Positions 4,984 to 31,269 of a DNA stretch of 45,591 bases are shown here, in pieces; position 1 is the stretch's first letter; each line of letters starts with the position of its first letter. The DNA comes from Armatimonadota bacterium (GTDB lineage: Bacteria; Armatimonadota; Fimbriimonadia; Fimbriimonadales; Fimbriimonadaceae). Made by a program: the position numbers and the translations under genes. Location: positions 186,001-231,591 of the forward strand of contig JANNQV010000015.1 in the NCBI GenBank assembly GCA_031400935.1, read 5' to 3'. The notes below the pieces were generated by a model. It ran no database searches. It worked only from the letters and a program-made list of their open reading frames with translations, and had not been told where the DNA came from.

Positions 4984-6282
4984 TTGTCCATGTCATCCAT
5001 TATGAAATTATCCCACTGGAGTTCCTGCGTTGGCTTTGTTGCATTGGCTGTGCCTGCATGGTCGCAGGCGGAAACATTGAGCCTAAATGAAGCTATTAGC
5101 ATGGCTCGCAAGAACAATGGAACGATCCGTTCTGCGATGCTAGATCATGAAGCATCAAAAAGCCGGGTTGCTTCTTCATTTTCATCGTTTCTGCCTTCTG
5201 TTACGCCTAGCTATCGCTACGATAGCTCACGGTCTTCAACGACATCCGGCGTGACCAATCTAAACGATGGCTATCCGACCGTTTCGGCGAGTTGGCAATT
5301 AATTGATTCTGGGCAAAGAGAATTGTCGTTTCGAGTCAGCAAACGGTCCGCCGCCCAAGCTGGATCAAACGCCTTGCAAACGATTCGGCAAATCCTGTTT
5401 TCCGTTCACGAACAGTATTTGAACACTCTCAGGGCGCAAGAACTTGTTCGGGTCAGCGAAGCTTCGGTAGAGCGAGCCGAAGAAATTCTAAAAGCTACCG
5501 AAGCGCAGATAGCCGCAAAGCAAGTTGCCGAAAAGGACAGATTACAGGCGCAGGCAGATCGGCTCAATGCAAAAGTAGATTTCCTTGGAGCAAAAAACCA
5601 GCTTTCTGGTGCAACCGCATCGCTGAAAGCCAGCATCGGCTGGGAGGCGCTTCGCCCACTTCCCGCGCTGGACAGAATGATGGATGCTGCTTTGATGGAA
5701 CCGCTTGGCGAGCTCGCAGATTTGATCAAATCTGGAATTGCGTCCAGGGAAGACTTACGATCTAGAAGGTTTGGAATCGAGGCGCAAAGGCTGAGCGTCA
5801 GTCGCGCACAAAGGGATGCAGGAATTTCGTTCTCGCTCGATGCAAATTACACCAGAAATTGGAGCGACACGGAACTTGACAGCAGAAGCATTACGTTTCT
5901 AACTTCAATACCCCTGTTCGATGGAAACGCAAGGCGCGAAGCGGTTCGGCAAGAAGAATTTGGACTTCGTTCTGACATAAGTACATACGACCAGGCTGTC
6001 CGCGTGGCCTCGGCTGAAATCGAATCTGCATACCTCGAATTGGCACAGAATCGAGAGCGAATCGAAGCTGCGACCGCCGCGCTCGAAGCCGCTCGTTTGA
6101 ACTACAAAGCCGCAAGCGAAGCTCAAAAACTAGGCGCAGATGGCACAAGTGTGATTACTGTTCTAACTGCGAAGATTTCCCTGGTTACAGCGGAATCAAA
6201 TTATGTGGACGCGCTGTACGATGTAAAGATTTCGGAGGTTCAGCTGAAGCTGGTAACGGGCCAGCCTATTCCGGGCGAATAA
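4984..6282 (+). CDS. TolC family outer membrane efflux protein
   Basis: Signal peptide, LSLNEAI N-terminus, FLPSVT and IPLFDG motifs, helical OEP repeats; GGAGG upstream. Confidence 0.9.
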   Translation: MSMSSIMKLSHWSSCVGFVALAVPAWSQAETLSLNEAISMARKNNGTIRSAMLDHEASKSRVASSFSSFLPSVTPSYRYDSSRSSTTSGVTNLNDGYPTVSASWQLIDSGQRELSFRVSKRSAAQAGSNALQTIRQILFSVHEQYLNTLRAQELVRVSEASVERAEEILKATEAQIAAKQVAEKDRLQAQADRLNAKVDFLGAKNQLSGATASLKASIGWEALRPLPALDRMMDAALMEPLGELADLIKSGIASREDLRSRRFGIEAQRLSVSRAQRDAGISFSLDANYTRNWSDTELDSRSITFLTSIPLFDGNARREAVRQEEFGLRSDISTYDQAVRVASAEIESAYLELAQNRERIEAATAALEAARLNYKAASEAQKLGADGTSVITVLTAKISLVTAESNYVDALYDVKISEVQLKLVTGQPIPGE

Positions 6283-6288
6283 ATATCT

Positions 6289-8088
6289 ATGAAAGCATCT
6301 TGGATTTTTGGTGGCATTGGGGTCGTCGTCGTTGGCGGCCTATTTATGTACTTTCGTGGCGGCGCAGCCGAAGCCGACGACATCGAATACCGCTATTCCA
6401 AGATTCAAAAAGGGGAGCTAATGCGCTCGACAACGGCTTCGGGAGTCCTTGTTGCTCAGACTTCTATTGATGTTCGGTCGAAGGCGGGTGGGACAATCGT
6501 TCAGCTCGCCGTAGATGCTGGCTCAATCGTGAAAAAAGGCGATCTCATCGCAATTATTGACCCAAGGGATACCAGAGCCCTGTACGATCAAGCCCTTTCT
6601 GATGTGAAAACTGCCAATGCCAGAATTGACCAATCGAAAGCCAATTACACGATGCAAGTAGCAAATAGCTCTAGTTCAGTTCGAGATGCTGAAATTGCGT
6701 TGGAGCAAGCCAAAATTCGGCTCGAAAAGGCAAGAATTTCTGATATTCGAGCACCGATTTCGAGCAATGCTCAAATTGACATGGCGCTGGCCCAATGGGA
6801 AACAGCAAAAGAAGAGCTGGATCGGTTTTTGAAAATTACAGATCCTCAAAGGACACGTGACGCCGAGGGGGCGCTCTACCAAACGAGAGCTTCGAACGAG
6901 GCCGCGATGCTCGAATTGGAGCGCCAAAGAGATTTGTTGTCAAAAGGCTATGTGTCGCAATCGTCCGTTGACCGAGCCACGGCTGCATTTGCGGCAGCCA
7001 GTGCTGCGTACGAAACCGCAAAACTGCGGAGAGAGAATCTTGACCAAGACCTCGCGGCTGAAGAACGAACTCTAAGACTCTCCGTCAATCGTGCCGCTGC
7101 AGCACTGGACGATGCGAAAGCACAAGGGAGCCTGGTAGAAACCTCCAAACGAGATTTGCGTGAAGCGCAAGCAGCCGTAAAGGCGGCGGAGGTCAATCTG
7201 CAGCGGGCAAAGGACGCGAGGCTCACAAACAATGTGAGGGCAGGAGAGCTTTCTGCTTCGCAGTCGGGTGCGGTTCGAAGCAGAGTTGCACTCGACAACG
7301 CAAAAGTTCAACTTGAATCCACAACCGTTTTGGCACCTCGCGATGGCGTAGTAACGCTCAAATATGCCGAAGAAGGCACCGTTATCCCCCCAGGAGTCAG
7401 CCAATTTTCTGCTGGCTCGAACATCGTTCAGCTAAGCGATGTCACCCGCCTTTTTGTGGATTGCGCGGTAGATGAGGCGGACATTTCAAATGTGAAGGAA
7501 GGCCAAAAAACACGAGTCGTAACAGAAGCTTTCCCAGGCGTCCAGATTGACGGAGTTGTGAGGCGCGTTAATCCTTCTGCCACAACTGCAAACAGCATTA
7601 CTGCAATTACCGTTCGAGTCGAATTGCTTCCGAAGCCAGATCAAAAAGTGCGATTAGTGCCTGGTATGAACGCGACTTGCGAATTCATTACTCTAAGCAA
7701 GCCAAACACAATTCTGGTTCCTTCGCAAGCAGTAAAGAGCGATGAATCGGGCTCATACGTAATGGTGAAATCCGCCGACCCTAAGAAACCTGAAAAGCGA
7801 AAGGTCGAATTGGGCGAATCGGGCAACGATGGAGTGGAACTCATTTCCGGGTTGAAAGAAGGCGAAGAAGTCGTAGTTGCGGAAATCAACTTGAAACAGC
7901 TTCGCGAAACGCAGCAGAGAATGGTTGAAGCACAGCAAGGCGGTGGCTTGGCAGGCGGTAGGCCGAATATGGGCGGTTCCCGCGCAACGGGTGCCACTGG
8001 CGGTGGCGGCGGATCACGTCCTGGCGGTGCAGGCGGAGGCATGGGCGGCGGCGGATCGCGACCTGGCGGCGCAGGAGGAGGAAGGTAG
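6289..8088 (+). CDS. Efflux periplasmic adaptor subunit (MacA/HlyD-like) with long coiled-coil and Gly-rich tail
   Basis: V..GSIVKKGDLIA lipoyl-like motif, APRDGVV, VDEADI, PGMNA and GLKEGEEVV. Confidence 0.92.
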   Translation: MKASWIFGGIGVVVVGGLFMYFRGGAAEADDIEYRYSKIQKGELMRSTTASGVLVAQTSIDVRSKAGGTIVQLAVDAGSIVKKGDLIAIIDPRDTRALYDQALSDVKTANARIDQSKANYTMQVANSSSSVRDAEIALEQAKIRLEKARISDIRAPISSNAQIDMALAQWETAKEELDRFLKITDPQRTRDAEGALYQTRASNEAAMLELERQRDLLSKGYVSQSSVDRATAAFAAASAAYETAKLRRENLDQDLAAEERTLRLSVNRAAAALDDAKAQGSLVETSKRDLREAQAAVKAAEVNLQRAKDARLTNNVRAGELSASQSGAVRSRVALDNAKVQLESTTVLAPRDGVVTLKYAEEGTVIPPGVSQFSAGSNIVQLSDVTRLFVDCAVDEADISNVKEGQKTRVVTEAFPGVQIDGVVRRVNPSATTANSITAITVRVELLPKPDQKVRLVPGMNATCEFITLSKPNTILVPSQAVKSDESGSYVMVKSADPKKPEKRKVELGESGNDGVELISGLKEGEEVVVAEINLKQLRETQQRMVEAQQGGGLAGGRPNMGGSRATGATGGGGGSRPGGAGGGMGGGGSRPGGAGGGR

Positions 8089-8090
8089 CC

Positions 8091-9302
8091 ATGACACTCG
8101 GCGACAGTTTCAGCAGCGCCTTAGGTGCGATCATAGCCAACAAGCTTCGTTCAGCTCTAACCATGCTTGGCGTTGTAATCGGTGTGGGCTCGGTTATAGC
8201 CATGATCGGCATCGGCGAAGGCACAAAAAAGAAATCCATCGAGAGCCTCGAAATGATGGGCTCGAACATGATCACCGTTATGCCAGATTGGCGGCGCGGC
8301 GGCCAGAACATGGGTTCAAACACAGGCGCATCCTTAAAGAGAGAGGACCTCGAAGATTTAAAGAAGAATGTTCAAGCAATTTCTTTGATCAGCGGCGCCG
8401 TTCGAGGAAACAAGCCCGTTCAATTCAGTGGCAAGAGCGCCCAAACTACCATCATGGGCGTCGAGCCACAGATGGCAATCATTCGAAATGCAACGAAAAT
8501 GCAATCGGGAACTTGGTTCACAGATGAAGATAACGCGATGCAAAAACAGGTGGCTGTTTTGGGCTACCAGGTTTACGACACGCTCTTTGCGGGAAACACG
8601 GCAGTAGGCGCAACGATTCGAATTGCGGGCCAAAACTACGATGTAGTCGGAGTGATTGATTATAAGGGCGGTTCCGGAATGATGAACCCCGACGATCAGA
8701 TTTATATTCCGCTCGAAACCGCTCAAAAACGCCTCCTCGGTAAAACGAACCTAGATCAAATTTCGGTTCAAGTCATGGACTCGACCATTTTACTGATCAC
8801 GCAACAGCAGATCGAAGATACGCTTGCGGTAAAGCGCAAAAACGCTTCTGGCGATTCCATGTTCCGCGTTTTCAACCAAGGCGAAATGCTCCAGCAAGTC
8901 GAAGACCAAACTCGGCTGCTCAGCTTGCTTTTGGCAGGGATTGCGTCCGTTTCGCTTTTAGTTGGCGGAATCGGAATCATGAACATCATGCTTGTCAGCG
9001 TCACGGAACGAACTCGCGAAATCGGGCTTCGAAAGGCGATTGGCGCGAAAAGAGAGAGCATTTTGACCCAATTTTTGCTCGAAAGTGTAGCGATGTGCCT
9101 ATCTGGTGGCGTATTAGGCATCGTGTTAGGGTCGTTAGGTGTTCAAATAGTGGCGCGAGTAATGAAAGTGCCACCTGCTGTAAGCATTCAATCCATCATT
9201 TTAGCGTTTGGATTTTCCGCTTTGGTAGGAATCTTTTTTGGACTTTATCCGGCAATGCGCGCCAGCCGACTTGACCCTATTGAGGCATTGAGACACGAAT
9301 GA
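8091..9302 (+). CDS. MacB/FtsX-like ABC transporter permease
   Basis: [44 protein letters not shown] and [17 protein letters not shown]. Confidence 0.95.
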
Positions 9303-10045
9303 AGCCAATTATTGAAGCCAAAACTCTTAGCAAAGACTATGTGATGGGCGACCTCGTCGTTCATGCCCTCCGAACCGTTGACGTTACGATCTATGAAGGC
9401 GAATTTGTCGCGATCATGGGTCCTTCAGGAAGTGGAAAATCCACTTTCATGAACTCGATTGGCTGCCTAGATAGGCCGACTAGAGGCGAATACTGGCTTA
9501 GCGGACAAGACGTTGCCGGATTGAGTGAAGACGAACTGGCTTCCATTCGAAACAAGTACATCGGCTTTGTTTTTCAAACCTTTAACTTGTTGCCGCGAAC
9601 ATCCGCACTCAAAAATGTCGAATTGCCCCTAATTTATGCCGGAGATCGAAATCGTGCAGAAAAGGCGATGGCCGCACTAAAGATGGTTGGTTTGGAGCAA
9701 AGAGCGCACCACCGTCCCAACGAGCTATCCGGCGGGCAGCAACAGCGTGTGGCGATTGCCCGAGCGATTGTGAACAACCCAGTTTTGATTCTTGGCGATG
9801 AGCCTACTGGAAACCTAGATTCGCGAACCGCGGAAGAAATCATGGCTCTGTTCCAAGACTTAAACCGAATGGGCAAGACGGTTGTGATCGTTACCCACGA
9901 AATGGACATCGCGAACCACTGTAAGCGAATTATCAAGTTCAAAGATGGCAGGGTGGTTAGTGACGAACTAATCGAAAACCCAATTGATGCACGGGAAATG
10001 CTTGAGAAAATGCCCGATCCAGACGCGGTAACAGTTGCTTCATGA
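9299..10045 (+). CDS. ABC transporter ATP-binding protein (MacB/LolD-like)
   Basis: Walker [10 protein letters not shown], signature LSGGQQQR, and DEPTGNLD. Confidence 0.96.
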
Positions 10046-10194: not shown

Positions 10195-11421
10195 TCACAA
10201 GCTCGTTTCAAGCAGAAGATCAGGAGCCGTCGCCGATTCGTTTGTCTCGCCGCCATCGTCCCGAAAATCGCTGCCCAAGCTATACAACTTATATGATGTC
10301 GCCGTCGGGAAATAGGCGAAATCTTTGCCAGTGAAAGGATCTATTCGCACAATTGTTGGATAGCCGGAAAGAGTCTCCGGAATAGTTTGGCCCCGCGCCC
10401 TCAAAGCGATCAATTGAGTCTCAATGGCAAGCATTCGCGTTCTTGCGATCGTTCGATCTCGAACGGCAAACAGGTATTTTGGAACTTGAAAAAAGTGTTT
10501 CGACCAGCGTCTCCATGGTCGGTCCTTGTCAAACTTTGGAGCTTCTTTGGTTGACCTTTGGCGCGCATTGAGCTTCGATGATGCAATAGCCGAAGCGGTT
10601 ATTGCGTCGGCCTCTGCTGCCAATGAATCGAAGAACTCAGTTCGCTCCATAGAATTTGGCTTTAACGCTTTGAGGAACTTGATGGCAGGAATAATTTCAT
10701 TTCTCAGCTCCGTTTCGTACACTTTCCAATTGCCTTTCCGGTAATCGTCTTGAAGAGTTTGAACGGCAAGGCGCATCGAAGTTCGCTCGTTTTCAAGAGT
10801 TTGGGATGGCACAGGTATTCGCTTCAGAACAGATTCCAAACCGGCAGAAAGTGTGCCCAACTGTTTCGGGCTGAGGCGCGAAACAGTTGGAAGAATTGCG
10901 TTCCTTGCTTCGTCAATGATTCCAAATCCAAGAGTGGCATCGGAGCAATCTCCGCCGGTCAAGTCTGCGCCAAATCGAGAAGCGGTCAGCGTAAAACGAA
11001 CCATTGCATCGAAGTCCTCTTGCCGTTTTGCATCTTCGATTCGCCAAACCATTGCCTGTCCCAACAGCCGCCATCCGGAACGGTATTTCTTCGATTCGAA
11101 AGGTGCCGTGGGCTCATATTCGAATCGAAATTCTTTGCCCGCTAAATTATCTAATAGTTGTAGCGGCTGTTGGCAAAGAACAATGACCGCCTCTTTTTTG
11201 CCGGGCGTAAAATTCGTACGGGTCAGATATTTCTTAGCATTCAATTCAGCCGCGTTGGCGGCTTTCTCAAATGTTGAAAAGCTGGACACAGAGTCGGAAA
11301 TTGTAGGTCCAGTTGCCTGCATAAAATTTGGATAAGGTAAATCTGGAGCGGTGCCGCATCCAGCCAACATCCATAAGGCTACAATCGCGACGACACCACA
11401 GCCATCCTTGGCTTGGTTCAT
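10195..11421 (-). CDS. Hypothetical lipoprotein
   Basis: Lipobox LAG|C after a hydrophobic stretch; C-terminal DPFTG..F.Y....YKLYSLGSD..DDGG motif reminiscent of GspG-like C-termini; start at MNQAK after TGcTACCAT-N6. Confidence 0.75.
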   Translation of the reverse strand: MNQAKDGCGVVAIVALWMLAGCGTAPDLPYPNFMQATGPTISDSVSSFSTFEKAANAAELNAKKYLTRTNFTPGKKEAVIVLCQQPLQLLDNLAGKEFRFEYEPTAPFESKKYRSGWRLLGQAMVWRIEDAKRQEDFDAMVRFTLTASRFGADLTGGDCSDATLGFGIIDEARNAILPTVSRLSPKQLGTLSAGLESVLKRIPVPSQTLENERTSMRLAVQTLQDDYRKGNWKVYETELRNEIIPAIKFLKALKPNSMERTEFFDSLAAEADAITASAIASSKLNARQRSTKEAPKFDKDRPWRRWSKHFFQVPKYLFAVRDRTIARTRMLAIETQLIALRARGQTIPETLSGYPTIVRIDPFTGKDFAYFPTATSYKLYSLGSDFRDDGGETNESATAPDLLLETSL

Positions 11422-11496
11422 AGGTTTATGGTAGCACGGATTCGTTTGACGCACTATTTTGGGACGATTCGAACCAATGAAACGTGGCAATCAAGA

Positions 11497-12758: not shown

Positions 12759-13631
12759 TTGGAAGAAGCGCTTCGTTCGTTCCAGGTATTCCGAACGTTT
12801 TCACCTGATAGTGTGAGAGCGGTGTTCGATATTCTTTGCGTTTCTTATGTCATCTTTCGCCTGCTTGCACTCATTCGAGGACCTCGGGCCTGGCGAATTC
12901 TCGGTGGGATCGTTGTTTTTGTCATCCTCCTTCTTGCCAGTGCAGCGATGGGAATTCGCACGCTTCATTGGCTTATGGACAAGGCGACCATTTTGGGTCC
13001 CGTCGCGTTAGTCATTTTGCTGCTTCCCGAACTCAGGCAAGCCTTGGAAGGATTTGGAAAACTGGGCTTTTGGCCGCAACAATCGCCAATGACTGAGCAT
13101 GGGATTGAAGCGAGAGCATTAGAAGAAATCGTTGCCGCCGCAACCGAAATGGCATCGTCGAGAACGGGTGCCCTGCTGGTAGTTGAGCGCGGCACAACAA
13201 TGGACGAAACGATTGGAAACGGAGTGCCCATTGACGCAGCTATTTCAGGACCGTTGCTAACTTCTATTTTTTACGGGGCAAATCCACTGCATGACGGTGC
13301 AGTTATCATCCGGGGAGAGCGTGTCATGGCAGCGGCTTGCCGTCTGCCGCTTAGCGAAAACCCCAGGCTCGCACCATTTTTGCACATGAGGCACAGGGCG
13401 GCAATTGGAATTTCCGAAAATCATGATTGCTTGGTAATTGTCGTTAGCGAAGAGCGCGGCACGATTGGATTTGTCAGCGATGGCAGCTTAAAGCCTGTTT
13501 CTCCTCAAGAATTGCGCGAAGAACTGAATCGCGAACTTCGCGGAATGGAGCAACGTACGCGACGAACGATTCGACGCTTGAAGCCGAATCGCGAAGTTAA
13601 GGAGGATGAGCTTGAATCTCGCGTCTCTTAA
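12759..13631 (+). CDS. cdaA: Diadenylate cyclase CdaA (DisA_N domain with 3 TM helices)
   Basis: PELRQALE, GALLV, PLHDGAV and RHRAAIGISE motifs. Confidence 0.93.
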   Translation: MEEALRSFQVFRTFSPDSVRAVFDILCVSYVIFRLLALIRGPRAWRILGGIVVFVILLLASAAMGIRTLHWLMDKATILGPVALVILLLPELRQALEGFGKLGFWPQQSPMTEHGIEARALEEIVAAATEMASSRTGALLVVERGTTMDETIGNGVPIDAAISGPLLTSIFYGANPLHDGAVIIRGERVMAAACRLPLSENPRLAPFLHMRHRAAIGISENHDCLVIVVSEERGTIGFVSDGSLKPVSPQELREELNRELRGMEQRTRRTIRRLKPNREVKEDELESRVS

Positions 13632-14604
13632 AGCTGATCTGCCGCTTAAGTTTGTTGCGCTGGGGTTAGGGACCTTCTTGTGGGTGTACGTGCAATCGTT
13701 GGAATCTGCGAAATCTACTAAAACTTTTCAAATTCCTCTCATCATTGAACGGAACAATCCGGAATTGGCATTTGTTTCGGCTTCCGATGGAGACGGCCGA
13801 TCAAAGCGAACAATTTCTGTTACGATGAAAGGATTTGCTGAAGAGCTTGCAGACCTTGACAATGCAAAAATTCAGAAGTCTCTTTTCACTTGGGTTGACC
13901 TCTCTGAAGGGCAAGCAGGCGAGGTTTCATATCCCGTAAAGTTTCGAGTCGCGCCCGAATTTGCCCGTTTCGAATGGGAGTGGGATCGTCGAGTGATAAT
14001 CGAAACGGAAGCTGTTTTACGGCTCGAACGCTCTGTAACTGTTTTGACGACTGGATCACCTCAAGTCGGCGCTGATTACAACAATGCAGCCGTCACTCCT
14101 TCTACGGTCGAAATCGTCGGTCCGGAATCGCAAGTTCAAAAAGTTCATACCGTTCGCGTATTGCTTGACTTACAGCGTGCTCAAAGCGGTGTCGAGCAAG
14201 ACGTTCCGGTAGAGATATTAGACAAACTAGATAAGCCGATTCAGGGAGTCACTGCCAATCCAGCAAGTGTTGTTGTCAAACCCGTGCTGTCGCCTGCGGC
14301 GCCATGGCGCGAAGTGTTTGTCGCGCCAAAGTTCGTTGGTGTACCGAAACAAGGATTTCGTGTCGTCTCGTATAACATTGACCCCTATATCGTCGAGATT
14401 CAGGGCGATCCGAAAATTCTACGAACGAACGTCACAGCCTCCACAACGCCCGTGGACCTTGAAGGACAATCCTCAACGATGCAGCGAGAGGTTAGGCTTA
14501 TTCTTCCCAAAGGATTGAAGCTGAGAAAGCCAACTCGATTTATTGTTAGAGTGCTGATTGAAGCCGAACCACCTATTGTAACGAAGCCTTCCGGTGCTCC
14601 ATGA
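13606..14604 (+). CDS. cdaR: CdaR / YbbR-like domain protein
   Basis: N-terminal TM, repeated P..V.I.G YbbR-type units, directly downstream of cdaA. Confidence 0.85.
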   Translation: MSLNLASLKADLPLKFVALGLGTFLWVYVQSLESAKSTKTFQIPLIIERNNPELAFVSASDGDGRSKRTISVTMKGFAEELADLDNAKIQKSLFTWVDLSEGQAGEVSYPVKFRVAPEFARFEWEWDRRVIIETEAVLRLERSVTVLTTGSPQVGADYNNAAVTPSTVEIVGPESQVQKVHTVRVLLDLQRAQSGVEQDVPVEILDKLDKPIQGVTANPASVVVKPVLSPAAPWREVFVAPKFVGVPKQGFRVVSYNIDPYIVEIQGDPKILRTNVTASTTPVDLEGQSSTMQREVRLILPKGLKLRKPTRFIVRVLIEAEPPIVTKPSGAP

Positions 14605-15384: not shown

Positions 15385-15414
15385 AGTAAAAGGTGCCCGG
15401 TCTTTCGACCGGGC
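15385..15414 (-). terminator. Intrinsic terminator between convergent genes
   Basis: GCCCGGTC-GAAA-GACCGGGC on the minus strand followed by ACCTTTT. Confidence 0.7.
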
Positions 15415-15445: not shown

Positions 15446-15832
15446 TTATTGTCGGGGTTGAAGTGTTCCCGAAAGCGCAATACCGTTCGCGTTTCCGATT
15501 GAAGCTGGAGTTCCGGTACCTGCGTTCCAACGTCGAGCGCCTCTGTTGCGGGCTGTCCATTCAAAGGCACCGAAACCGTCAGTTGTGGCTTCTCCCACTT
15601 GATTTCCAGCCAATGTCAATAGATAGGTTGTATTTGGGGCGAGGTCTTCGCCTTCGAATTCAAGCTCTTCTTGAATTTGTCGGCCAGTACGGTTGGCAAA
15701 TTTGTATTTTGCCTTCCCGCTTGCGGCACCGTTGCTCATTCGGGCTTCCCAAATGAAAACCCCAGTTTGTGCGACGAGGACGGCAGCAATTCCTACTGCA
15801 ATAACAGATGCGATAGCTTTTCGATTCAACAT
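15446..15832 (-). CDS. Small secreted hypothetical protein (beta-rich)
   Basis: Strong AAAGGAG SD; signal peptide MLNRKAIASVIAVGIAAVLVA; GKAKY...LEFEGEDL...VGEATTDGFG. Confidence 0.8.
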   Translation of the reverse strand: MLNRKAIASVIAVGIAAVLVAQTGVFIWEARMSNGAASGKAKYKFANRTGRQIQEELEFEGEDLAPNTTYLLTLAGNQVGEATTDGFGAFEWTARNRGARRWNAGTGTPASIGNANGIALSGTLQPRQ

Positions 15833-15880
15833 AATTGTATGCTCCTTTCAGTGAACCCTAGTAGATTCACATGCTCTAAC

Positions 15881-15907
15881 GAGTGAACGAAAATCCGCTG
15901 TGATACA
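15881..15907 (-). promoter_or_regulatory. Candidate ECF sigma promoter TGTATCA-N17-CTC (copy 1)
   Basis: Minus strand reads TGTATCA cagcggattttcgttca CTC, about 50 nt upstream of the 15832 start. Confidence 0.5.
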
Positions 15908-15918
15908 CTCTTTTGCAT

Positions 15919-16527
15919 ATGCTCGCCTCAAACGACTTAGAATCGCTTGTAAGAAAGTGCATTGCTGGCGACGGTAGGGCATGGAGCGAGCTTGTGGAGC
16001 AGTTCCAAAACTTGGTGTATTCGGTTTCTCGAAGAATGCGGCTTACAGAAGAAGATGCTGGAGATGTCTTTCAGACAACTTTCTTGGCTTTGTTTCGAAA
16101 TTTGGATCGTATTGAATCAGTTGCGACTCTTCCAAAGTGGCTTACAGTGACTGCAACTCGAGAATCCTATAGGCTCATGAATTCGAGATATGCAAAAACC
16201 ACGACGAACCAAGGTGATACTGATTTGGATGCTGTATTGGCAGATGAGGATCATTGTGTTGAGGAGCAAATTGAATTGGCTGCAACTGGCGAGGCCTTGC
16301 GCCAAGGCTTGGAAAGACTAAAAGAAAAGTGCCGCGAATTGCTGACGATGCTCTATATTGAGGAGGATGTTTCATACCAAGAAGTTTCAGATCGGTTGTC
16401 GCTCCCAATGGGTTCGATAGGCCCAACCCGTGCCAGATGCTTGGACAAATTGCGTTCGATCCTTGCAAAAGATTCTTTTTTCTCTGAAATGTATCAGGAC
16501 AAAAGTAACGCTGCTCTTCCAGTTTGA
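15919..16527 (+). CDS. ECF-type RNA polymerase sigma-70 factor
   Basis: AWSELVEQF, DAGDVFQTTFLAL and KWL (region 2); SYQEVSDRLSLPMGSIGPTRARCLDKLR (region 4). Confidence 0.93.
   Translation: MLASNDLESLVRKCIAGDGRAWSELVEQFQNLVYSVSRRMRLTEEDAGDVFQTTFLALFRNLDRIESVATLPKWLTVTATRESYRLMNSRYAKTTTNQGDTDLDAVLADEDHCVEEQIELAATGEALRQGLERLKEKCRELLTMLYIEEDVSYQEVSDRLSLPMGSIGPTRARCLDKLRSILAKDSFFSEMYQDKSNAALPV
16490..16516 (+). promoter_or_regulatory. Candidate ECF sigma promoter TGTATCA-N17-CTC (copy 2), inside the 3' end of the sigma gene
   Basis: TGTATCA ggacaaaagtaacgctg CTC, ending 14 nt before the ATG at 16531. Confidence 0.5.
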
Positions 16528-16530
16528 ATC

Positions 16531-17073
16531 ATGAAAATGCGCGTTAATGACAGGTTGATTGAACTCGTGGATGTTGCCACTGGGTTACGATCTGCATCTG
16601 AGCTAGGTGAAATTTCACCCGGAGAGATGCGAAGGCTTTCTGAACTTCGCGTAGTTTTTCAGGCATTTTCAATTCAAACCGAATCCGCGCCAGTTTCAGC
16701 TATTGAATCGGTAAAGGCGTTCCTTCCAATCAAACCGATTCAAATTTTCAAAGCAAGGTTGGGACAAACCTCATTGGCGACGGTCGGAGCGCGATTTGAA
16801 ACTGCCGATCAATTCCAAGCCACTTATGAAACCGATCAGCATGAAATTAGGATGAGCTTTGAGCGCACTACGATGGGTTGGAACGTGATGGGAAAATTAC
16901 CAGAAGGAATCTGGGAGATTCGAGCGAAAGATATTCTTGTAGTGTCCGATGCCGCGGGCAGATTTGAACTCCAAATAGACGACATCTCAAACGCAGAATG
17001 GCGAATGAGAACTGTTTCCGCAGAGATAGTGTTACCCTCGCTGAGGAAGGCGGTGTCGGGTGACACTGCCTGA
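16531..17073 (+). CDS. Soluble hypothetical protein, putative anti-sigma factor
   Basis: Immediately downstream of the ECF sigma; no TM segment; helical N-terminus, VGAR linker and beta-rich C-terminus with SDAAGRF. Confidence 0.7.
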   Translation: MKMRVNDRLIELVDVATGLRSASELGEISPGEMRRLSELRVVFQAFSIQTESAPVSAIESVKAFLPIKPIQIFKARLGQTSLATVGARFETADQFQATYETDQHEIRMSFERTTMGWNVMGKLPEGIWEIRAKDILVVSDAAGRFELQIDDISNAEWRMRTVSAEIVLPSLRKAVSGDTA

Positions 17074-19681
17074 GCTAGTCACATTTATTGAATCCGCTCC
17101 GGACGAAGAAGCTCGAAAACTAGTGCGCCAAAATTGCGCGGAAGTTGGCTTTACGAGTGAATATTATTGCGAAATTGTTTCACGCTTAGGTTCTGACCCG
17201 CATTCAGCCAAAAAACTGGCAAGCTTTTGGGAGGACCTTGGCGATGGAGACGACAAGCAATACGATTCCCAAAGGGTTCGCGCCCTCTTTGAAAGGACAA
17301 TGGGCCAATGGTTGAGGTCGGCAGAGGCGACAATCACGGCCTCCAAAGCTGCCCCTGACGACCTCCATCGGTGGCAGTGCATGATTGGCGCAATTGACGC
17401 TTTTGGGCGAGCAGGAGCAGTGGATCGGGCCAATTCTCTCGCAAAGCAAGCCTCGCGAAAATTGAAAGAACTTGGAGACATGGAATCAGCCGGACGTGCA
17501 TGCATCAATGCAGGTAACGCCCTTAACTGGCACGATGAATTCGCCAAAGCTCGAAAGTGGTTTTTGAAGGCAGACAGCTACTTAGCTGGGTCGGGGAACG
17601 AATTCGCCAAGGCTTCCATAAAGCTTGGTCTTTCGACGTGTTACTTATTTACTTCGACGACGAAGGAAGCATCTGATACAGCACAATCCGCAGCGAGAGA
17701 ATTTTCAATCCTGGGTCATCACTCTTACGCCGCTCTGGCAAAGGTCAATGAAGTTCATTGCTTCTTGCGCATGGGACGAGCGGATGAGGCCAGGGCACTC
17801 TTGCTGGAAATACGGGAAGAACCACTTTCTGAATTCGATCGAGTCCGCGTTGAGGAGTTTTTAGGAGATGCCTACCTTAGATTGAACCTATTCGAAGAGG
17901 CACTAGACGCATTTGGAACGGCACTGAGCAGTCCGGCGATGGCATCCTTGCCAATGAACAGGGGCAATTGCGAACTGGGAATCGGAGAGGCTTATGCATC
18001 AATGGGGCAAACTGATCTTGCGATTCAGCACTTCCAAAATGCCAAGAAACTTTACTTGGGGTTTGGAAACGAAATTTGGGCGGCTTGTGCCGAACTTCGA
18101 GTTTTGCAGGCCAAATCATATTCATCGGCGAGCAAAGCACTTCAATTGGCAAAGTACTTTGCAACGCAAAAAATCCGATTGTTAGAGGTCGAAGCACTCT
18201 TGCTTGCTTCAAAGGCGCGAGGCCATATTGGAATTGAAGCGCTAAAGAAAGCAAGGTCTCTTATCGAATACTGGGGATTTGAGCACGTCCGATGGCAGGC
18301 TGATCACATCGTTGCTCTACATACTGTGGGGGCACTGCAATTAAGGGCGTATCGCCGTATGTGCAAATCAATTTTGCGCGCTCGAGAATTTGTGTCTTCA
18401 AGAAGCGGATTGATGGCTTTCTACCGTGACAAGGATGCAGCGATCTCCGAATATCTCGATCTCCTGTTATCTTCTGGATCAAAAGTCAAAGTTGAAGAAG
18501 CAATCCGATTTATTGGCGAGACACGTTCGCAGGCGTTGTTGGATGAAGTTCGCGCACGTTCAGCCCACCTAGACCCAAAAGTTAGCGAGAGAATTGGCCA
18601 ACTTCGACTTTCCATTGCGGACTCGCTGAATGACGACTTACCCGGAGGACCGGCTAGACGAACATTTTTGGGTGACGCTCCTGCGATTTCGTTGCGGAGA
18701 GCTTGGATGGAGCTGGATTCAGAGCTGATTCGTTCAAATGAGCCAGTTAAGTTGAATTCTAGTGCTGCGTTGGTCTTTGCAAGAGGCAAGAATTCGTTCT
18801 ATGCGATCAGAGATGGCGCTTCGACCCAGCTTCCTATTCCAGCCGATGCACTCGCAAAGATGATTCGATGGTTGCGTTTTGAGATGCTCGAGCCCATGAT
18901 TGCCAAAACAGCAACCCACGACTCAGTCGAGGCCATCGTCGCACAGCTAAAAGCCGTTCTCTGGGATCCATTTGTAGTTTCACGCAGGATTGAAAGAATT
19001 TGCCCCGATGATTTCTTGTGGCAAGCTCCGTGGCAACTCTTTGCTGCAATGGATTCAATGGAATCTGAAATACCCATAAGCCCGTGGATGTCTCCTCTTA
19101 ATACCGAAACTGGTAATTTTGCTAAGAAAGTTGGAATTTGGTACTTTCCGAATCCCGAATTGCCTCTTATGAAGCGTGAGGCAGAAGAATTTTTGAGCCG
19201 ATACCCGGATGCGGAGGTATTTGCGACGATAGACGAGGCACGAAATTGTTTGGAAACAGGGGATTTTGATTTGTTGCACATAGCAGGACACGCTTCGCTC
19301 CATCGCACAAATCCAATGTTTAGCGCACTTTGCGGAGCCGAGGGAAAGATTTTTGCGAAAGAAATCGCAACGTCAAAATTGAAGGCTAAAACAGTCGTAC
19401 TTTCTGCTTGCGATACCGGTGCAACTTCGGGCAAAAGCAGAACGGAGATTGACGGGATGACTCGAGCATTTTTTGCGAGAGGAACTGAAAAAGTGATCGC
19501 AACGCAATGGCCGTTACACGACGAATCTGGGGCCATTTTCATGAGTGTTATGTACAATGAATTGGGTGCAGGCAGTCCAATTGAAAAAGCTATCGCTAGT
19601 GCGAGGTGGCAAACAAATTTAGAATTTGCCCACCCATATTATTGGGGTGCGCCCATTCTCTATGGAGGATTCTCATCTTGA
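17060..19681 (+). CDS. TPR-CHAT (caspase-like, clan CD) protease
   Basis: TPR-like helical repeats; LLHIAGHA (catalytic His), VVLSACDTG (catalytic Cys), IATQWPLHD and HPYYWGAP. Confidence 0.93.
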   Translation: MTLPELVTFIESAPDEEARKLVRQNCAEVGFTSEYYCEIVSRLGSDPHSAKKLASFWEDLGDGDDKQYDSQRVRALFERTMGQWLRSAEATITASKAAPDDLHRWQCMIGAIDAFGRAGAVDRANSLAKQASRKLKELGDMESAGRACINAGNALNWHDEFAKARKWFLKADSYLAGSGNEFAKASIKLGLSTCYLFTSTTKEASDTAQSAAREFSILGHHSYAALAKVNEVHCFLRMGRADEARALLLEIREEPLSEFDRVRVEEFLGDAYLRLNLFEEALDAFGTALSSPAMASLPMNRGNCELGIGEAYASMGQTDLAIQHFQNAKKLYLGFGNEIWAACAELRVLQAKSYSSASKALQLAKYFATQKIRLLEVEALLLASKARGHIGIEALKKARSLIEYWGFEHVRWQADHIVALHTVGALQLRAYRRMCKSILRAREFVSSRSGLMAFYRDKDAAISEYLDLLLSSGSKVKVEEAIRFIGETRSQALLDEVRARSAHLDPKVSERIGQLRLSIADSLNDDLPGGPARRTFLGDAPAISLRRAWMELDSELIRSNEPVKLNSSAALVFARGKNSFYAIRDGASTQLPIPADALAKMIRWLRFEMLEPMIAKTATHDSVEAIVAQLKAVLWDPFVVSRRIERICPDDFLWQAPWQLFAAMDSMESEIPISPWMSPLNTETGNFAKKVGIWYFPNPELPLMKREAEEFLSRYPDAEVFATIDEARNCLETGDFDLLHIAGHASLHRTNPMFSALCGAEGKIFAKEIATSKLKAKTVVLSACDTGATSGKSRTEIDGMTRAFFARGTEKVIATQWPLHDESGAIFMSVMYNELGAGSPIEKAIASARWQTNLEFAHPYYWGAPILYGGFSS

Positions 19682-20907
19682 AATCAAGACAAGTCAAACA
19701 ATCGCTAGCCATTTTGGCAGCGTTGTTCTTAACTTCTAGCAGCTTTGCTTCAAGCACCATCGTTGCCAAACTTAATCCTGGATTTGATCCGCACATTGTT
19801 GCTGCGACCCTTGGAATAACTTACTTGGATTCATCACAAGGGGGGCGTTACACGCTGTTCGGGACAAGCTCTGAATCGCAATCAGAGCTGGTTGAAGCCC
19901 AACTGATTTCCACGCCAAATCCGATGGCTGCTTGGGCTGAAGACGATGACGAATTGACTGTCACCGAGTCCACAAACGGCAAAGGTGGAGGTGTGCCACA
20001 ACTCCGACGTTCGACGATTCAAACTCAATTCTCCCAAGGAAGTGCTCATGCCGAAAATACAGCAATGCTTCAACAGATTCGTTGGAATTACGAGTCGCTA
20101 AGCAACGATCGAGGCATTCGAGTCGCCATTTTAGATACGGGACTCTCGCCTCTGCAACCTGCGATTTGGAATCGAGTTGTTGCATCGGCAACAATGAATC
20201 CTCGCGAAACGAATGCGTGGGACAATCGTTTGTCGCCAGGTACGAATAATTCACACTTGTACCAAGATATTGCTGGACATGGAACGATGATAGCTGGCCT
20301 GATATATATGCTGGCCCCAGATTCAGAACTGATTATCGTACGTATCTGCGACAACTACGGAAGATCGGATACGTGGCGAGTCATAAAGGGAATCGGATTT
20401 GCATTAGAGCATGGCGCTGTGTTGGCAAATCTCAGTTTTGGCTCAATTTCGCAAGCCCACGCTCTTAAGGAAGTCATTGAGGATGCTGAAGCTGAAGGAC
20501 TGCTTTGCATTGCTCCCCTCGGAAACAACGGCAGTCAGATGGCGCTTTATCCGGCCAAAGAAGATCAAACGTTGGCTGTAAGCGGCGTTGATCATATCGA
20601 TTTGAAAGCCAGTTTTTCGAACTGGCACTTTGAAGCGGATATGTCCGCGCCTTCAACAGGGATCCGAAGCGCATGGTGGAACGGTCAAATGGCTGTTTGG
20701 AGTGGGACTTCGTTCGCTGTCCCGATCGTAACGGGTTGTCTTGCTGAAGCTTTGAAAAACCGAGGTCCAGTAGTTCCCGAAGATATTATTGACGCTGTCA
20801 ACCAAATGGGCGACAACGTTGATCCATTGAATCCGAATTATACAGGCAATCTTGGGCGTCGAGTTAACATGATAAAGATGCGCGCTGCGATCAAAGCCTT
20901 GCCGTAG
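19678..20907 (+). CDS. Secreted S8 (subtilisin-like) serine peptidase
   Basis: TTG start overlaps the CHAT stop with GGAGG upstream; signal peptide; triad [15 protein letters not shown] and SGTSFAVP. Confidence 0.93.
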
Positions 20908-27825: not shown

Positions 27826-29814
27826 ATGGAGTCTAATTGTCTTTCCCTGAAAGATGCGTTGCTGGAGCTTGATCAAATCGCTCCTGGTGCACCGCTATTA
27901 GCTTTAGGGCAGACTGTTTTGTGGGACGAGCCGATGAAAGGCGGGGCAGCGCTCGCCTTGCGAGAAATAGGCTCCAATAGAAAGCTCGTTGCAGGCGTTC
28001 ACGATACGGATTTCTTTGCCAAATTGCCATCTGGTACTCGCGAAAGGAATGCCTTCAAGGCGTTTCCACATAACGACACAACAACTCGCGGACTTTGGAG
28101 CGCGGCTGGGGAGTTTCGAGCGATTTTTGGAAGCGAAACCGTCATTTCCAAGCAAGAATTGACCCAGGCCGGAGCACGGTTAGAGAAGTTGGCGCGTGCT
28201 AGGCCAGGGGTCCTGGATGAAGCTACAGAAGCCTTCGGCTGGCGAGGAATTGTTAGCCTGGATCAAGATGCTCCCCTTGCCGGCGAAGTATCCATATTAG
28301 ATGTCTTCGATCCTCTGCAAAAGACTTTGGACTGGGCGATTGAATCCACAATTGAAGCTGTTGGCGAAAACTCCAGGCCTTCAGCAATCGAAAAGTCCAA
28401 CGAACTTTGGACGACAGTATGCAACTCGTATGCAATCGCTGAACGGGGAACACTAACTGATTTCTATTGCGATTTACTTCCTTCCATTTACAATTTTGTA
28501 GCCGGAGAAGAGGTGCCGCTTGAAGTCACTCGCACAAGCCGGTTGCTCCAATTCAACAACGAAACTTGCAACAAAGATCACTTCAAGTTGCTTGATCTGT
28601 TCTTACAGCCCGAGTCTCGCGAAAGAGCGGTTTCAGCCTACAACTCAGCAGTTGAGGGCACAGAGGTCTACCAACTTGAGCGATTTGGCACCGGAGCAAT
28701 TCCGTTTGACTTGGTGGTTCCTGGACATGGGAGGGGAACAATCCGAATCGGCAAGAGAGGATTAGTGATCGCTGGTGCGAACCCACTTTTTGCTTCGTTT
28801 AAGAAGCCGATAAATTCGGTATCCGATTTAGCAGAAATCATCGAACGTAAATTCGGTCCGAGTTGCGTGATCATTGGCAAGGCGATTACGCTCATCGGCA
28901 TGCTTGCTACAGAGTTCGTTTTTGTCTTCCACGAAGGTGCGAGCGGATATACCAAACAGTCTATGAAGTTTCATGATGGCTTGATTGGAGCCGGATTTGG
29001 CCTCAAATGGAATCCAATATTGCGAATCCGGTACTGCCCCTGGACAGCGTTGGATGCGCTAAAGACTTGGATTCATTTGCCAAAGCCGCTGCAAATGGCG
29101 TTTGGAACCGAGGACGTTTGCGCAGCTAGTTTTTCGTCTCGTTGGGAAATCGTAGCCCAGGAACAAACTGTTTTACTAGCCGAACTTAGTGAATTGAGGC
29201 GCCCAGTTGAACTGATACATTTTCTAGATCAGCATGTTGGCGGAGCTTGGAGTGCATTGGCAAAAGAATACGAAACCATTCACGAGAGAATTTCGGGCGC
29301 ACTCGCGAAATTGCAAGAGGAGCACGGCAAGCGAATGACCCTGTATGGCAAGCTTCGGCTTGCTAAGTCAAATCGAGTTGAATCGGAAATGGCGAAGGGC
29401 GACCACTTTCGAGAAACAATTTTTGAGAAAATGCCAAGCTCCTCTGATCTTGAAATGAGGCACTCACTCACCGAGAAGGTCGTGAAGTCAATCTTGGAAA
29501 TCAATTATCTAAGAATGGAAATTGAAGAAAGCGTGCGACGGCAAAGGGGCATTGCTTCGAGTAAAGAGATTGAATTGGCACATGAGCGCCGCAGATCAAT
29601 CGAGCTGGAAGCTGAGCTAAAGCGAGTTCAACTCATTCGCAATGCAATTATCAGTTCAAAGGGACTTCTTCGAGCGGGATATCGGCCTAGCGCATGGTGG
29701 TTCCCATTGCTTTCGCCAAATGGCGATTGGATAAGACGCACTTGGGAGACATCTCAATGTTATTTTGAGAGCTTAGGACAAAGTCCCAACGAATCCCTTA
29801 CAGGTACCTTTTAG
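27826..29814 (+). CDS. Hypothetical protein (662 aa) with C-terminal coiled-coil
   Basis: Long ORF with globular composition; motifs GQT..WDE, HDTDFF and FHEGASGY. Confidence 0.8.
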   Translation: MESNCLSLKDALLELDQIAPGAPLLALGQTVLWDEPMKGGAALALREIGSNRKLVAGVHDTDFFAKLPSGTRERNAFKAFPHNDTTTRGLWSAAGEFRAIFGSETVISKQELTQAGARLEKLARARPGVLDEATEAFGWRGIVSLDQDAPLAGEVSILDVFDPLQKTLDWAIESTIEAVGENSRPSAIEKSNELWTTVCNSYAIAERGTLTDFYCDLLPSIYNFVAGEEVPLEVTRTSRLLQFNNETCNKDHFKLLDLFLQPESRERAVSAYNSAVEGTEVYQLERFGTGAIPFDLVVPGHGRGTIRIGKRGLVIAGANPLFASFKKPINSVSDLAEIIERKFGPSCVIIGKAITLIGMLATEFVFVFHEGASGYTKQSMKFHDGLIGAGFGLKWNPILRIRYCPWTALDALKTWIHLPKPLQMAFGTEDVCAASFSSRWEIVAQEQTVLLAELSELRRPVELIHFLDQHVGGAWSALAKEYETIHERISGALAKLQEEHGKRMTLYGKLRLAKSNRVESEMAKGDHFRETIFEKMPSSSDLEMRHSLTEKVVKSILEINYLRMEIEESVRRQRGIASSKEIELAHERRRSIELEAELKRVQLIRNAIISSKGLLRAGYRPSAWWFPLLSPNGDWIRRTWETSQCYFESLGQSPNESLTGTF

Positions 29815-29817
29815 CCG

Positions 29818-31269
29818 ATGTCTCCCGCCCTTCGCCAACGAATTGTTGCATGGGGATTTTGTCTGCTGCCATTTTTGTGGTTTTGGATGACAGGTCTCTT
29901 TGACTTGGATGAAGGCTACTACGCCGCTGTTTCCGACCGAATGATTCGAACCGGAGATTGGATCATCCCCAAGTTCGATGGTGTCCCATGGCTTGAAAAG
30001 CCGATCCTCGTGTATTGGATTACAAATCCGATGCTATTGGCGTTTGGCGATGTATTTGGCCCGAGACTTTCTTCCATCTTTTGCAGCCTCGGGACCATCG
30101 CGTTGGTTGGCTGGTTTGTTTCAAAGCTCGTGGGTCGGGAAAGGGGCGAAATCGCCCGCTGGGTTCTGGCTGGAACCGCCTTATTTGTCGTTACTGGAAA
30201 CATGCTCATAACCGACCCAGTTATGTTGCTCACGTCAACCGCAGCCATGTTGCTATTTGTGGGTTCGTTAGTGTGGCAACCTTGGCTACGATGGGTTTCC
30301 GCTGCTTCGCTTGGATTTTCCGTTTTGGCTAAAGGGCCGTATCCGGTCGTTGTCCTTTTGGTTGTTGTTGCTTGGACGTACTTTTCTGAACCAACTTTGA
30401 GAACCACTTTGAGACAAGGCTGGACCCGATACTTTGCAATTGTCCTCTTGGTTTGTAGCCTTTGGTATGTGCCAGTTTATTTCCGCGAACCTGAGACTTT
30501 TGTAGATGAGTTTCTGATTCGACAAAACATCGGTCGGCTGATGGGAGGGGACGTTGCCCACAATGTTCCATGGTGGTCGCATCCAATCTATTACATTGCG
30601 GTCTTGGCAGTAGCAGCAGCACCTTGGCCGTTTATGCTTCGTAAAGTTTGGCCCAAAAAGGCAGAAGTTGACGACGACAATTCTTTGGTTCGAAGATGGC
30701 TTGCAAAGTGGGCCGTCGCTGTTTTTGTTTTGTTTACGATTGGCGGCACGAAACTGCCGCATTACATCCTTCCGACTCTGGTGCCCATTGCGATGTTGCT
30801 CGCAATAGGCTGGCAGGATATTGGCTTACCAAAGCTCTCAAGAATTGCAAAAGGAATGTGCGTCGTTAATTCTCTTTTCATCGTGATTCTAGTGACTTTG
30901 TATTACAAGTCAAGCGGTCAGCTCGAAGTTCATCGAATCGCAATTGCTGCTTATAAGGCTGGTTTTCCAATAGCAACTTTTCAGCTTGATAAGCGAGAAG
31001 GGGGCTCCATAGTTCAGGTGAAAATGCAGGAGACACTGCTCCCATCGCTTGCTCTATATGCTCACCAAGATGTTCCCGATTTTGAGGGATTTGCAAAGTC
31101 CTTGATCCCAAAAAACGATTTTGTCTTGATTACCAGACCTGGAAGATTGCTTCAAAAAAACCTTGATCAACTGGATAAGCTTGGAAGGAGAGCGACGAAA
31201 TGGGATGCTGTTCCGGATTCGGAAAAGTACGAGGCATATCTGATTTCCTCTAAAACCAGAAAAGAATAG
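29818..31269 (+). CDS. ArnT/GT39-GT83 family membrane glycosyltransferase
   Basis: DLDEGYY, GDWIIP, EKPILVYW, LAKGP and KLPHYILP; multiple TM helices. Confidence 0.9.
   Translation: MSPALRQRIVAWGFCLLPFLWFWMTGLFDLDEGYYAAVSDRMIRTGDWIIPKFDGVPWLEKPILVYWITNPMLLAFGDVFGPRLSSIFCSLGTIALVGWFVSKLVGRERGEIARWVLAGTALFVVTGNMLITDPVMLLTSTAAMLLFVGSLVWQPWLRWVSAASLGFSVLAKGPYPVVVLLVVVAWTYFSEPTLRTTLRQGWTRYFAIVLLVCSLWYVPVYFREPETFVDEFLIRQNIGRLMGGDVAHNVPWWSHPIYYIAVLAVAAAPWPFMLRKVWPKKAEVDDDNSLVRRWLAKWAVAVFVLFTIGGTKLPHYILPTLVPIAMLLAIGWQDIGLPKLSRIAKGMCVVNSLFIVILVTLYYKSSGQLEVHRIAIAAYKAGFPIATFQLDKREGGSIVQVKMQETLLPSLALYAHQDVPDFEGFAKSLIPKNDFVLITRPGRLLQKNLDQLDKLGRRATKWDAVPDSEKYEAYLISSKTRKE

Follow-up and report, generated by a model that had tools for sequence, protein, structure and literature searches.

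In this study, we analyzed a candidate sigma factor switch encoded by an uncultured freshwater Armatimonadota bacterium and located in a 45,591-nucleotide stretch of its genome (the window; contig JANNQV010000015.1 of assembly GCA_031400935.1). Region 15446-20907 of the window holds five genes. Four of them lie tightly packed on the plus strand and encode a sigma factor of the extracytoplasmic function (ECF) type, a protein of 180 amino acids (p180), a protease combining tetratricopeptide repeats with a CHAT domain (TPR-CHAT) and an S8 subtilase. The fifth, sec128, is divergent from them and encodes a small, presumably secreted protein. Together with the regulatory elements, the locus is composed as follows, from left to right.

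15395..15414, minus strand: terminator-like hairpin directly after the sec128 stop codon, with an 8-pair stem (7 G-C) and a T-rich tail.
15446..15832, minus strand: sec128, 128 amino acids with a hydrophobic, signal-like N-terminus; predicted small secreted protein and candidate regulon member.
15880..15906, minus strand: match to an ECF-type promoter motif, GTATCAC-N16-CTCG, facing sec128.
15901..15909, plus strand: extended -10-like element TGaTACACT, the putative housekeeping-type promoter of the sigma gene, overlapping the ECF -35 element of the other strand.
15913..16527, plus strand: ECF (group IV) sigma factor with Pfam Sigma70_r2 (2.3e-9) and r4 (2.8e-5) and TIGR02937.
16491..16517, plus strand: match to an ECF-type promoter motif, GTATCAG-N16-CTCT, within the 3' end of the sigma gene and 13 nt before the p180 ATG.
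16531..17073, plus strand: p180, 180 amino acids, read as a soluble anti-sigma factor, with a helical domain (about 1-66) and a beta-sandwich (about 71-170).
17060..19681, plus strand: TPR-CHAT, 873 amino acids (PF12770, 1.1e-28), a predicted cysteine protease with His744 and Cys784, read as cytoplasmic.
19678..20907, plus strand: S8 subtilase (PF00082, 5.6e-25) with an Asp/His/Ser triad, a pre-pro form read as exported.

This layout agrees, down to the gene junctions, with what a first-pass annotation of the DNA had described as four tightly packed genes with a divergent gene for a secreted protein. The sigma and p180 genes are separated by a gap of 3 nt. The p180 and CHAT genes overlap by 14 nt, with GAGGAAGG preceding the GTG start codon of the latter, and the CHAT and S8 genes overlap by the bases TTGA, with GGAGGA located 8 nt ahead of the S8 start codon TTG at 19678. 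For the sigma gene, the ATG at 15919 is the likelier start.

The same annotation had named the lack of a conserved linkage of these genes across genomes as grounds for rejecting its reading; the neighbourhood search shows the linkage to be conserved. Two sets of loci were compared, 11 from related genomes and 25 from databases, five of the latter duplicating members of the first set. Full-length orthologues of the CHAT protein are present in 12 of 41 related genomes at 27-70 % identity. Among the 11 loci of relatives, the sigma gene, a p180 gene directly upstream of CHAT and an S8 gene directly downstream of it are each found in 10, and every miss coincides with a contig end. The corresponding counts for the database loci are 22/25, 24/25 and 17/25, again with the misses at contig ends; in all eight cases of a missing S8 gene, the contig breaks off at the CHAT gene or no more than about 0.8 kb from it. 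The order sigma-p180-CHAT-S8 is thus kept in 32 Armatimonadota loci wherever the contig allows, and the flanking genes vary between loci while the cassette stays. The gene linkage is far beyond chance. The genome itself encodes only one CHAT gene. Two closely similar database loci (L033:7604-10238 and L036:7610-10251) carry two tandem S8 paralogues 3' of CHAT instead of one.

Of 26 database loci that hold a CHAT orthologue, 24 carry titles naming Armatimonadota, Fimbriimonadales, Fimbriimonas or Chthonomonas, and there is one weak match in Eisenbacteria. One locus (L030) is titled as a Methanoregulaceae archaeon; its contig is identical to one from the bacterial family of the window (G017:C21), so the title is probably the result of mis-binning or mislabelling.

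The sigma factor scores 84 bits with TIGR02937, above the cut-off of that model. Its nearest named NCBIfam models are those of SigW, though the scores stay below their cut-offs. The p180 protein encoded next to it in the window has neither a Pfam match nor a hydrophobic segment, a look-up in a protein atlas gave no named family, and the public names of 10 relatives are all "hypothetical protein" or lacking. Its family is large, with 672 cluster representatives found by the p180 profile at an E-value limit of 0.001, of which 113 also pass a limit of 1e-30; among the 150 matches listed, the relatives measure 117-231 amino acids, mostly about 180. The consensus of this family reads C-x21-H-x3-C-x2-C, a zinc anti-sigma motif near the N-terminus. 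In an alignment of 124 sequences, three of the ligand columns hold Cys in 101, His in 112 and Cys in 109 sequences, respectively. When a profile of 11 p180 orthologues was compared with the PDB, the single match was the anti-sigma-W domain of RsiW (5wuq_C, solved with SigW; E 0.0041), and the alignment covers the zinc motif with the helix that follows it. The family consensus and this profile match together support the earlier proposal that the 180-amino-acid protein is a soluble anti-sigma factor.

The family consensus thus carries the class I motif H-x3-C-x2-C, but the p180 of the window does not: V5, E27 and E32 occupy the three ligand columns, and the ligands are likewise gone from the proteins most closely related to it. 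As judged from its sequence family, p180 is a cryptic soluble anti-sigma factor, zinc-free in this genome, which by homology would bind the sigma factor. Its AlphaFold2 model (mean predicted local distance difference test, pLDDT, 81) places helices at 5-16, 30-47 and 55-64, followed by a beta-sandwich at 71-170 that matches generic Ig-like folds only. The most conserved residue of the whole family, Arg88 (123 of 124 sequences), belongs to this second domain and lies in a Gly-Ala-Arg sequence within a block with a mean pLDDT of 60.

The third protein combines a long TPR superhelix with a caspase-like domain behind it, in a model of high confidence (pLDDT 87, predicted template modelling score 0.86) that has the fold of a TPR-CHAT protease of the Csx29 type. 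Both catalytic motifs are intact in the window, HIAGHA with the His and LSACDTG with the Cys, and His744 and Cys784 are invariant in 26/26 CHAT orthologues. Fold and motifs agree with the earlier assignment to the craspase/separase-type TPR-CHAT proteins, and from sequence and model the CHAT protease looks active and craspase-like. Neither this protein nor the consensus of its orthologues has a signal peptide. Because the p180 of the window has lost the zinc ligands while the module and the catalytic dyad have been kept, release of the sigma factor is here probably independent of zinc/thiol chemistry.

The fourth protein is an ordinary subtilisin-type enzyme, with subtilisin NAT as best PDB match (1.4e-23) and the catalytic motifs AILDTG, HGT and GTSFA. 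Read from the TTG at 19678, it begins with a signal-peptide-like segment and an N-terminal extension, and hydrophobic, signal-like N-termini are found in 10/10 aligned orthologues. The sec128 protein gave no Pfam match and no named family in the protein-atlas look-up; homologues with signal peptides are encoded divergently from the sigma gene in 9 further distinct loci.

A further link between the genes is provided by a promoter motif. A word conserved before many of the sigma genes reads, on the opposite strand, GTATCAC, 16 nt and CTC[TG]. In its strict form, GTATCA[CG]-N15-17-CTC[TGC], the motif has 3 matches in the 2.97-Mb genome versus 20-24 in three shuffled versions, and two of the three are located in the cassette locus. 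For the minus-strand match at 15906, a Shine-Dalgarno sequence and the sec128 ATG follow about 45 nt further downstream. The third match (contig C47, about 8717, plus strand) falls within the terminal part of an Obg-like gene, some 15 nt before a nadD-like gene, and was treated as a likely chance occurrence. The motif was then surveyed over 29 loci, among which are near-duplicates (L029/L030, L033/L036/L049 and loci of the genus of the window). Upstream of p180, within 90 nt, it is present in 7/29 loci in the strict and 13/29 in the relaxed form, and facing away from the sigma gene in 9/29 and 12/29, respectively, the genome background being 0.0155 per kb on each strand. Among the 12 instances listed upstream of p180, the distance from the end of the motif to the start codon is 8-15 nt in 10 and -1 and 17 nt in the other two, which implies a nearly leaderless transcript. 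A match 3' of the S8 gene in L029 and L030 was dropped as no clear coding frame lies behind it.

None of the loci surveyed has the strict motif in sense direction upstream of the sigma gene. In most loci, TAnAAT-like hexamers instead precede the sigma start by 9-20 nt, and we take TGaTACACT at 15901-15909 as a putative housekeeping-type extended -10 element of the sigma gene; a simple consensus promoter scan did not list this element. The earlier proposal that the sigma factor drives the secreted protein as well as the protease module is, judged from the motif at both sites, probable: the sites are seen in the sequence, and their use by this sigma factor is suggested by the motif. In one rearranged locus (L047:82-5373) the sigma gene is inverted and sec128 lies directly before p180-CHAT-S8, behind GTATCAG-N16-CTCC, so that sec128 joins the protease operon there.

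Taken together, we lean with modest confidence toward the view that the cassette forms an ECF sigma switch that works on its own, without CRISPR, and is gated by a protease. The sigma gene would be transcribed from its own housekeeping-type promoter, and p180 would hold the sigma factor via its N-terminal anti-sigma helices. Since their genes overlap, p180 and TPR-CHAT would be produced together. Some cue sensed by the TPR superhelix would then activate the CHAT protease, and this protease would cut p180, as gene linkage and the analogy to Craspase suggest. The likely candidate for the cleavage site is the flexible and nearly invariant Gly-Ala-Arg88 loop of the beta-sandwich, which would parallel the cut of Csx29 in a loop of the C-terminal domain of Csx30. 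With the p180 remnant degraded, the freed sigma factor would read GTATCA[CG]-N16-CTC[TGC], from one promoter toward sec128 and from the other toward the nearly leaderless p180-CHAT-S8 transcript. The outcome would be feedback on the switch and an exported subtilase as output.

Several observations weigh against this model. About half of the loci lack the promoter motif even when its pattern is relaxed, meaning that either the promoter sequence has drifted or not all loci share the regulon. Only 10 of the 29 loci have sec128. A weak match to Pfam zf-HC2 appears in just 2 of the 11 p180 orthologues (best E 0.058) and not in the p180 of the window. Fusions of p180 and CHAT are missing among the longer proteins searched, which is weak evidence by itself. 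Finally, no signalling role of the exported S8 enzyme follows from the data.

Among the alternatives, the one that survives best supposes that the sigma and anti-sigma factors are separated in another way, by general proteolysis or a partner protein, and that CHAT and S8 are merely outputs of the sigma factor, CHAT having its targets among the other proteins of the cell, for instance in the role of a stress or anti-phage effector. The ECF-type promoter before p180-CHAT-S8 indeed makes both proteases members of the regulon. The patchy occurrence of p180, found in 31 of 301 sampled genomes of the phylum and in 10 of 31 in the family of the window, is typical of accessory modules, and CHAT proteases of type III CRISPR systems are described as effectors (10.1101/2023.06.23.546230). 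Yet, in every locus examined the p180 gene adjoins the CHAT gene, and the two usually overlap. PADLOC returned only a weak partial match of CHAT to BovA (3.6e-7), and the cassette is flanked by housekeeping genes (cdaA, a YbbR-domain gene and a GNAT gene upstream; metK, purC and a Kdo transferase gene downstream). In addition, the zinc ligands are lost in the p180 of the window, which makes redox release unlikely in this genome. We regard this alternative as unlikely.

It is less likely still that CHAT acts without cutting p180, either as a scaffold for partner switching that draws the anti-sigma factor away from the sigma factor or by cutting the sigma factor itself. A large TPR superhelix would suit such docking, and the binding of Csx30 to Csx29, reported as not regulated by the activating RNA (PMC10028731), offers a precedent for stable docking without cleavage, but the invariance of the catalytic His and Cys in all orthologues argues for a catalytic role.

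Equally unlikely is a closed loop that elaborates on the one imagined in the first-pass annotation, in which the exported subtilase makes an external peptide, perhaps from sec128 or else from another secreted protein, that re-enters the cell and binds a Rap-like TPR part, upon which CHAT would cut the anti-sigma factor at the Gly-Ala-Arg loop. The signal peptides of all S8 orthologues and the apparent co-regulation of S8 with sec128 would fit, but the TPR part resembles Rap peptide receptors no better than other TPR proteins such as LGN (same Z), which leaves the subtilase-made peptide no specific support, sec128 is missing from about two thirds of the loci and neither the window nor the loci of relatives show a peptide importer linked to the cassette, so that we consider both the loop and its activating peptide improbable. 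If it were true, a caspase-like protease would serve inside the cell as receptor for a proteolytic signal from outside, and a prokaryotic pair similar to separase and securin would have been rewired for the control of transcription.

Returning to the protease-gated switch, its gene combination has already been catalogued computationally, as the genomic context of the sigma factor group ECF54. According to the entry for this group in the supplement of PMC7826278, ECF54 is confined to Actinobacteria (100 %), has no recognised anti-sigma factor and is accompanied by a carboxypeptidase-regulatory-like protein at position +1, a subtilase and a TPR-CHAT protein, with a predicted promoter of GTATCAG at -35 and CTCC at -10. 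A review mentions the same neighbourhood, with proteolytic control as a proposal (PMC8999054). The likeness to our cassette comprises a sigma factor with regions 2 and 4, a small protein at +1, the neighbouring subtilase and TPR-CHAT, and a promoter equal to GTATCA[CG]-N16-CTC[TGC]; it rests on gene set and motif as described there. Differences lie in the phylum, Armatimonadota instead of Actinobacteria, in the gene order, as CHAT precedes the subtilase here, and in the +1 protein, which in our case is read as a derivative of a zinc-type anti-sigma factor whereas the ECF54 entry lists none.

The earlier statement that such neighbourhoods lack a characterised mechanism thus stands as far as the mechanism is concerned, but the neighbourhood itself was already on record. 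Our literature searches, made within one library of papers, retrieved no experimental study of the stand-alone cassette. New are the occurrence of the cassette in Armatimonadota, the interpretation of the +1 protein as a cryptic anti-sigma factor that is zinc-free in this genome, and the two ECF54-type sites that define a candidate regulon. In a tblastn search of CHAT and sigma against a plasmid collection, the regions examined in Nonomuraea, Streptomyces and Miltoncostaea had other contexts, and no actinobacterial ECF54 locus was found. A plasmid of Miltoncostaea oceani (L054:7962-9993) encodes a sigma factor 32 % identical to that of the window, followed by a short S8 protein and a GAF protein, with no CHAT; this locus may be a reduced relative of the cassette.

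The closest mechanistic parallel is Craspase, in which Csx29 cleaves Csx30 at a flexible loop of its C-terminal domain, and the N-terminal domain of Csx30 holds and inhibits CASP-sigma (PMC10028731). The logic of protease, sigma inhibitor and ECF sigma factor would be the same in both, and the proposed cut in p180 falls at the equivalent position, a loop of the C-terminal domain. The activator, however, must differ. As the first-pass annotation had supposed, the cassette is independent of CRISPR: searches of the genome, at a completeness of 95.6 %, gave no match to Cas1 or RAMP, and the window holds no such gene either. As Cas7-11, RAMP and Cas1 are lacking from this genome, a target RNA cannot be the activator here. 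The p180 profile also has no match to Csx30 in the PDB (E up to 10; a comparison of sequences only), and the linked S8 subtilase is an extra component.

A second parallel is found in the DdvA/DdvS system of Myxococcus xanthus (PMC11506125; PDB 8rot, 8rw5), which as described there likewise unites a CHCC-type zinc anti-sigma domain, an ECF sigma factor and a TPR-CHAT of the separase/craspase type. DdvA, however, is a single transmembrane protein with the zinc anti-sigma domain in the cytoplasm and the TPR-CHAT in the periplasm, whereas in the Armatimonadota cassette the two functions are divided over separate genes. As p180 and CHAT have no signal peptide or hydrophobic segment, both are read as cytoplasmic. 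The regulons differ as well, with a defence island reported for DdvA and apparently a subtilase and a small secreted protein here.

The third parallel is SigW/RsiW of Bacillus subtilis, to which both the sigma factor and p180 point in the profile comparisons above and with which the cassette would share release by proteolysis. RsiW is membrane-bound and cut by the site-1 and site-2 membrane proteases; p180, in contrast, is soluble and linked to a CHAT protease.

If the CHAT-dependent cleavage of p180 is true, no simpler caspase-like sigma switch than this cassette would be known. It would need just four proteins, soluble or secreted, without a CRISPR effector or a membrane step, and could easily be rebuilt in E. 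coli, for which the two promoter sites are ready reporters. It would also supply a mechanism for the whole ECF54 group, listed without a known regulator, and make clear in what way Craspase and DdvA are connected with a wider family of stand-alone switches gated by proteases.

Other parts of the window contain genes apart from the cassette. The upstream flank carries cdaA, encoding the cyclic di-AMP synthase, followed by the YbbR-domain regulator gene (12759-14604), with the GNAT gene between these and the cassette. Further upstream lie a 431-amino-acid open reading frame on the minus strand with no Pfam match at E up to 0.01 (10195-11490) and a MacAB-TolC-like efflux operon composed of an outer-membrane factor, an HlyD-type adaptor, a MacB/FtsX permease and an ABC ATPase (4984-10045). 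Downstream, two adjoining large open reading frames of 662 and 483 amino acids are located at 27826-31269, with no Pfam match at E up to 1e-5.

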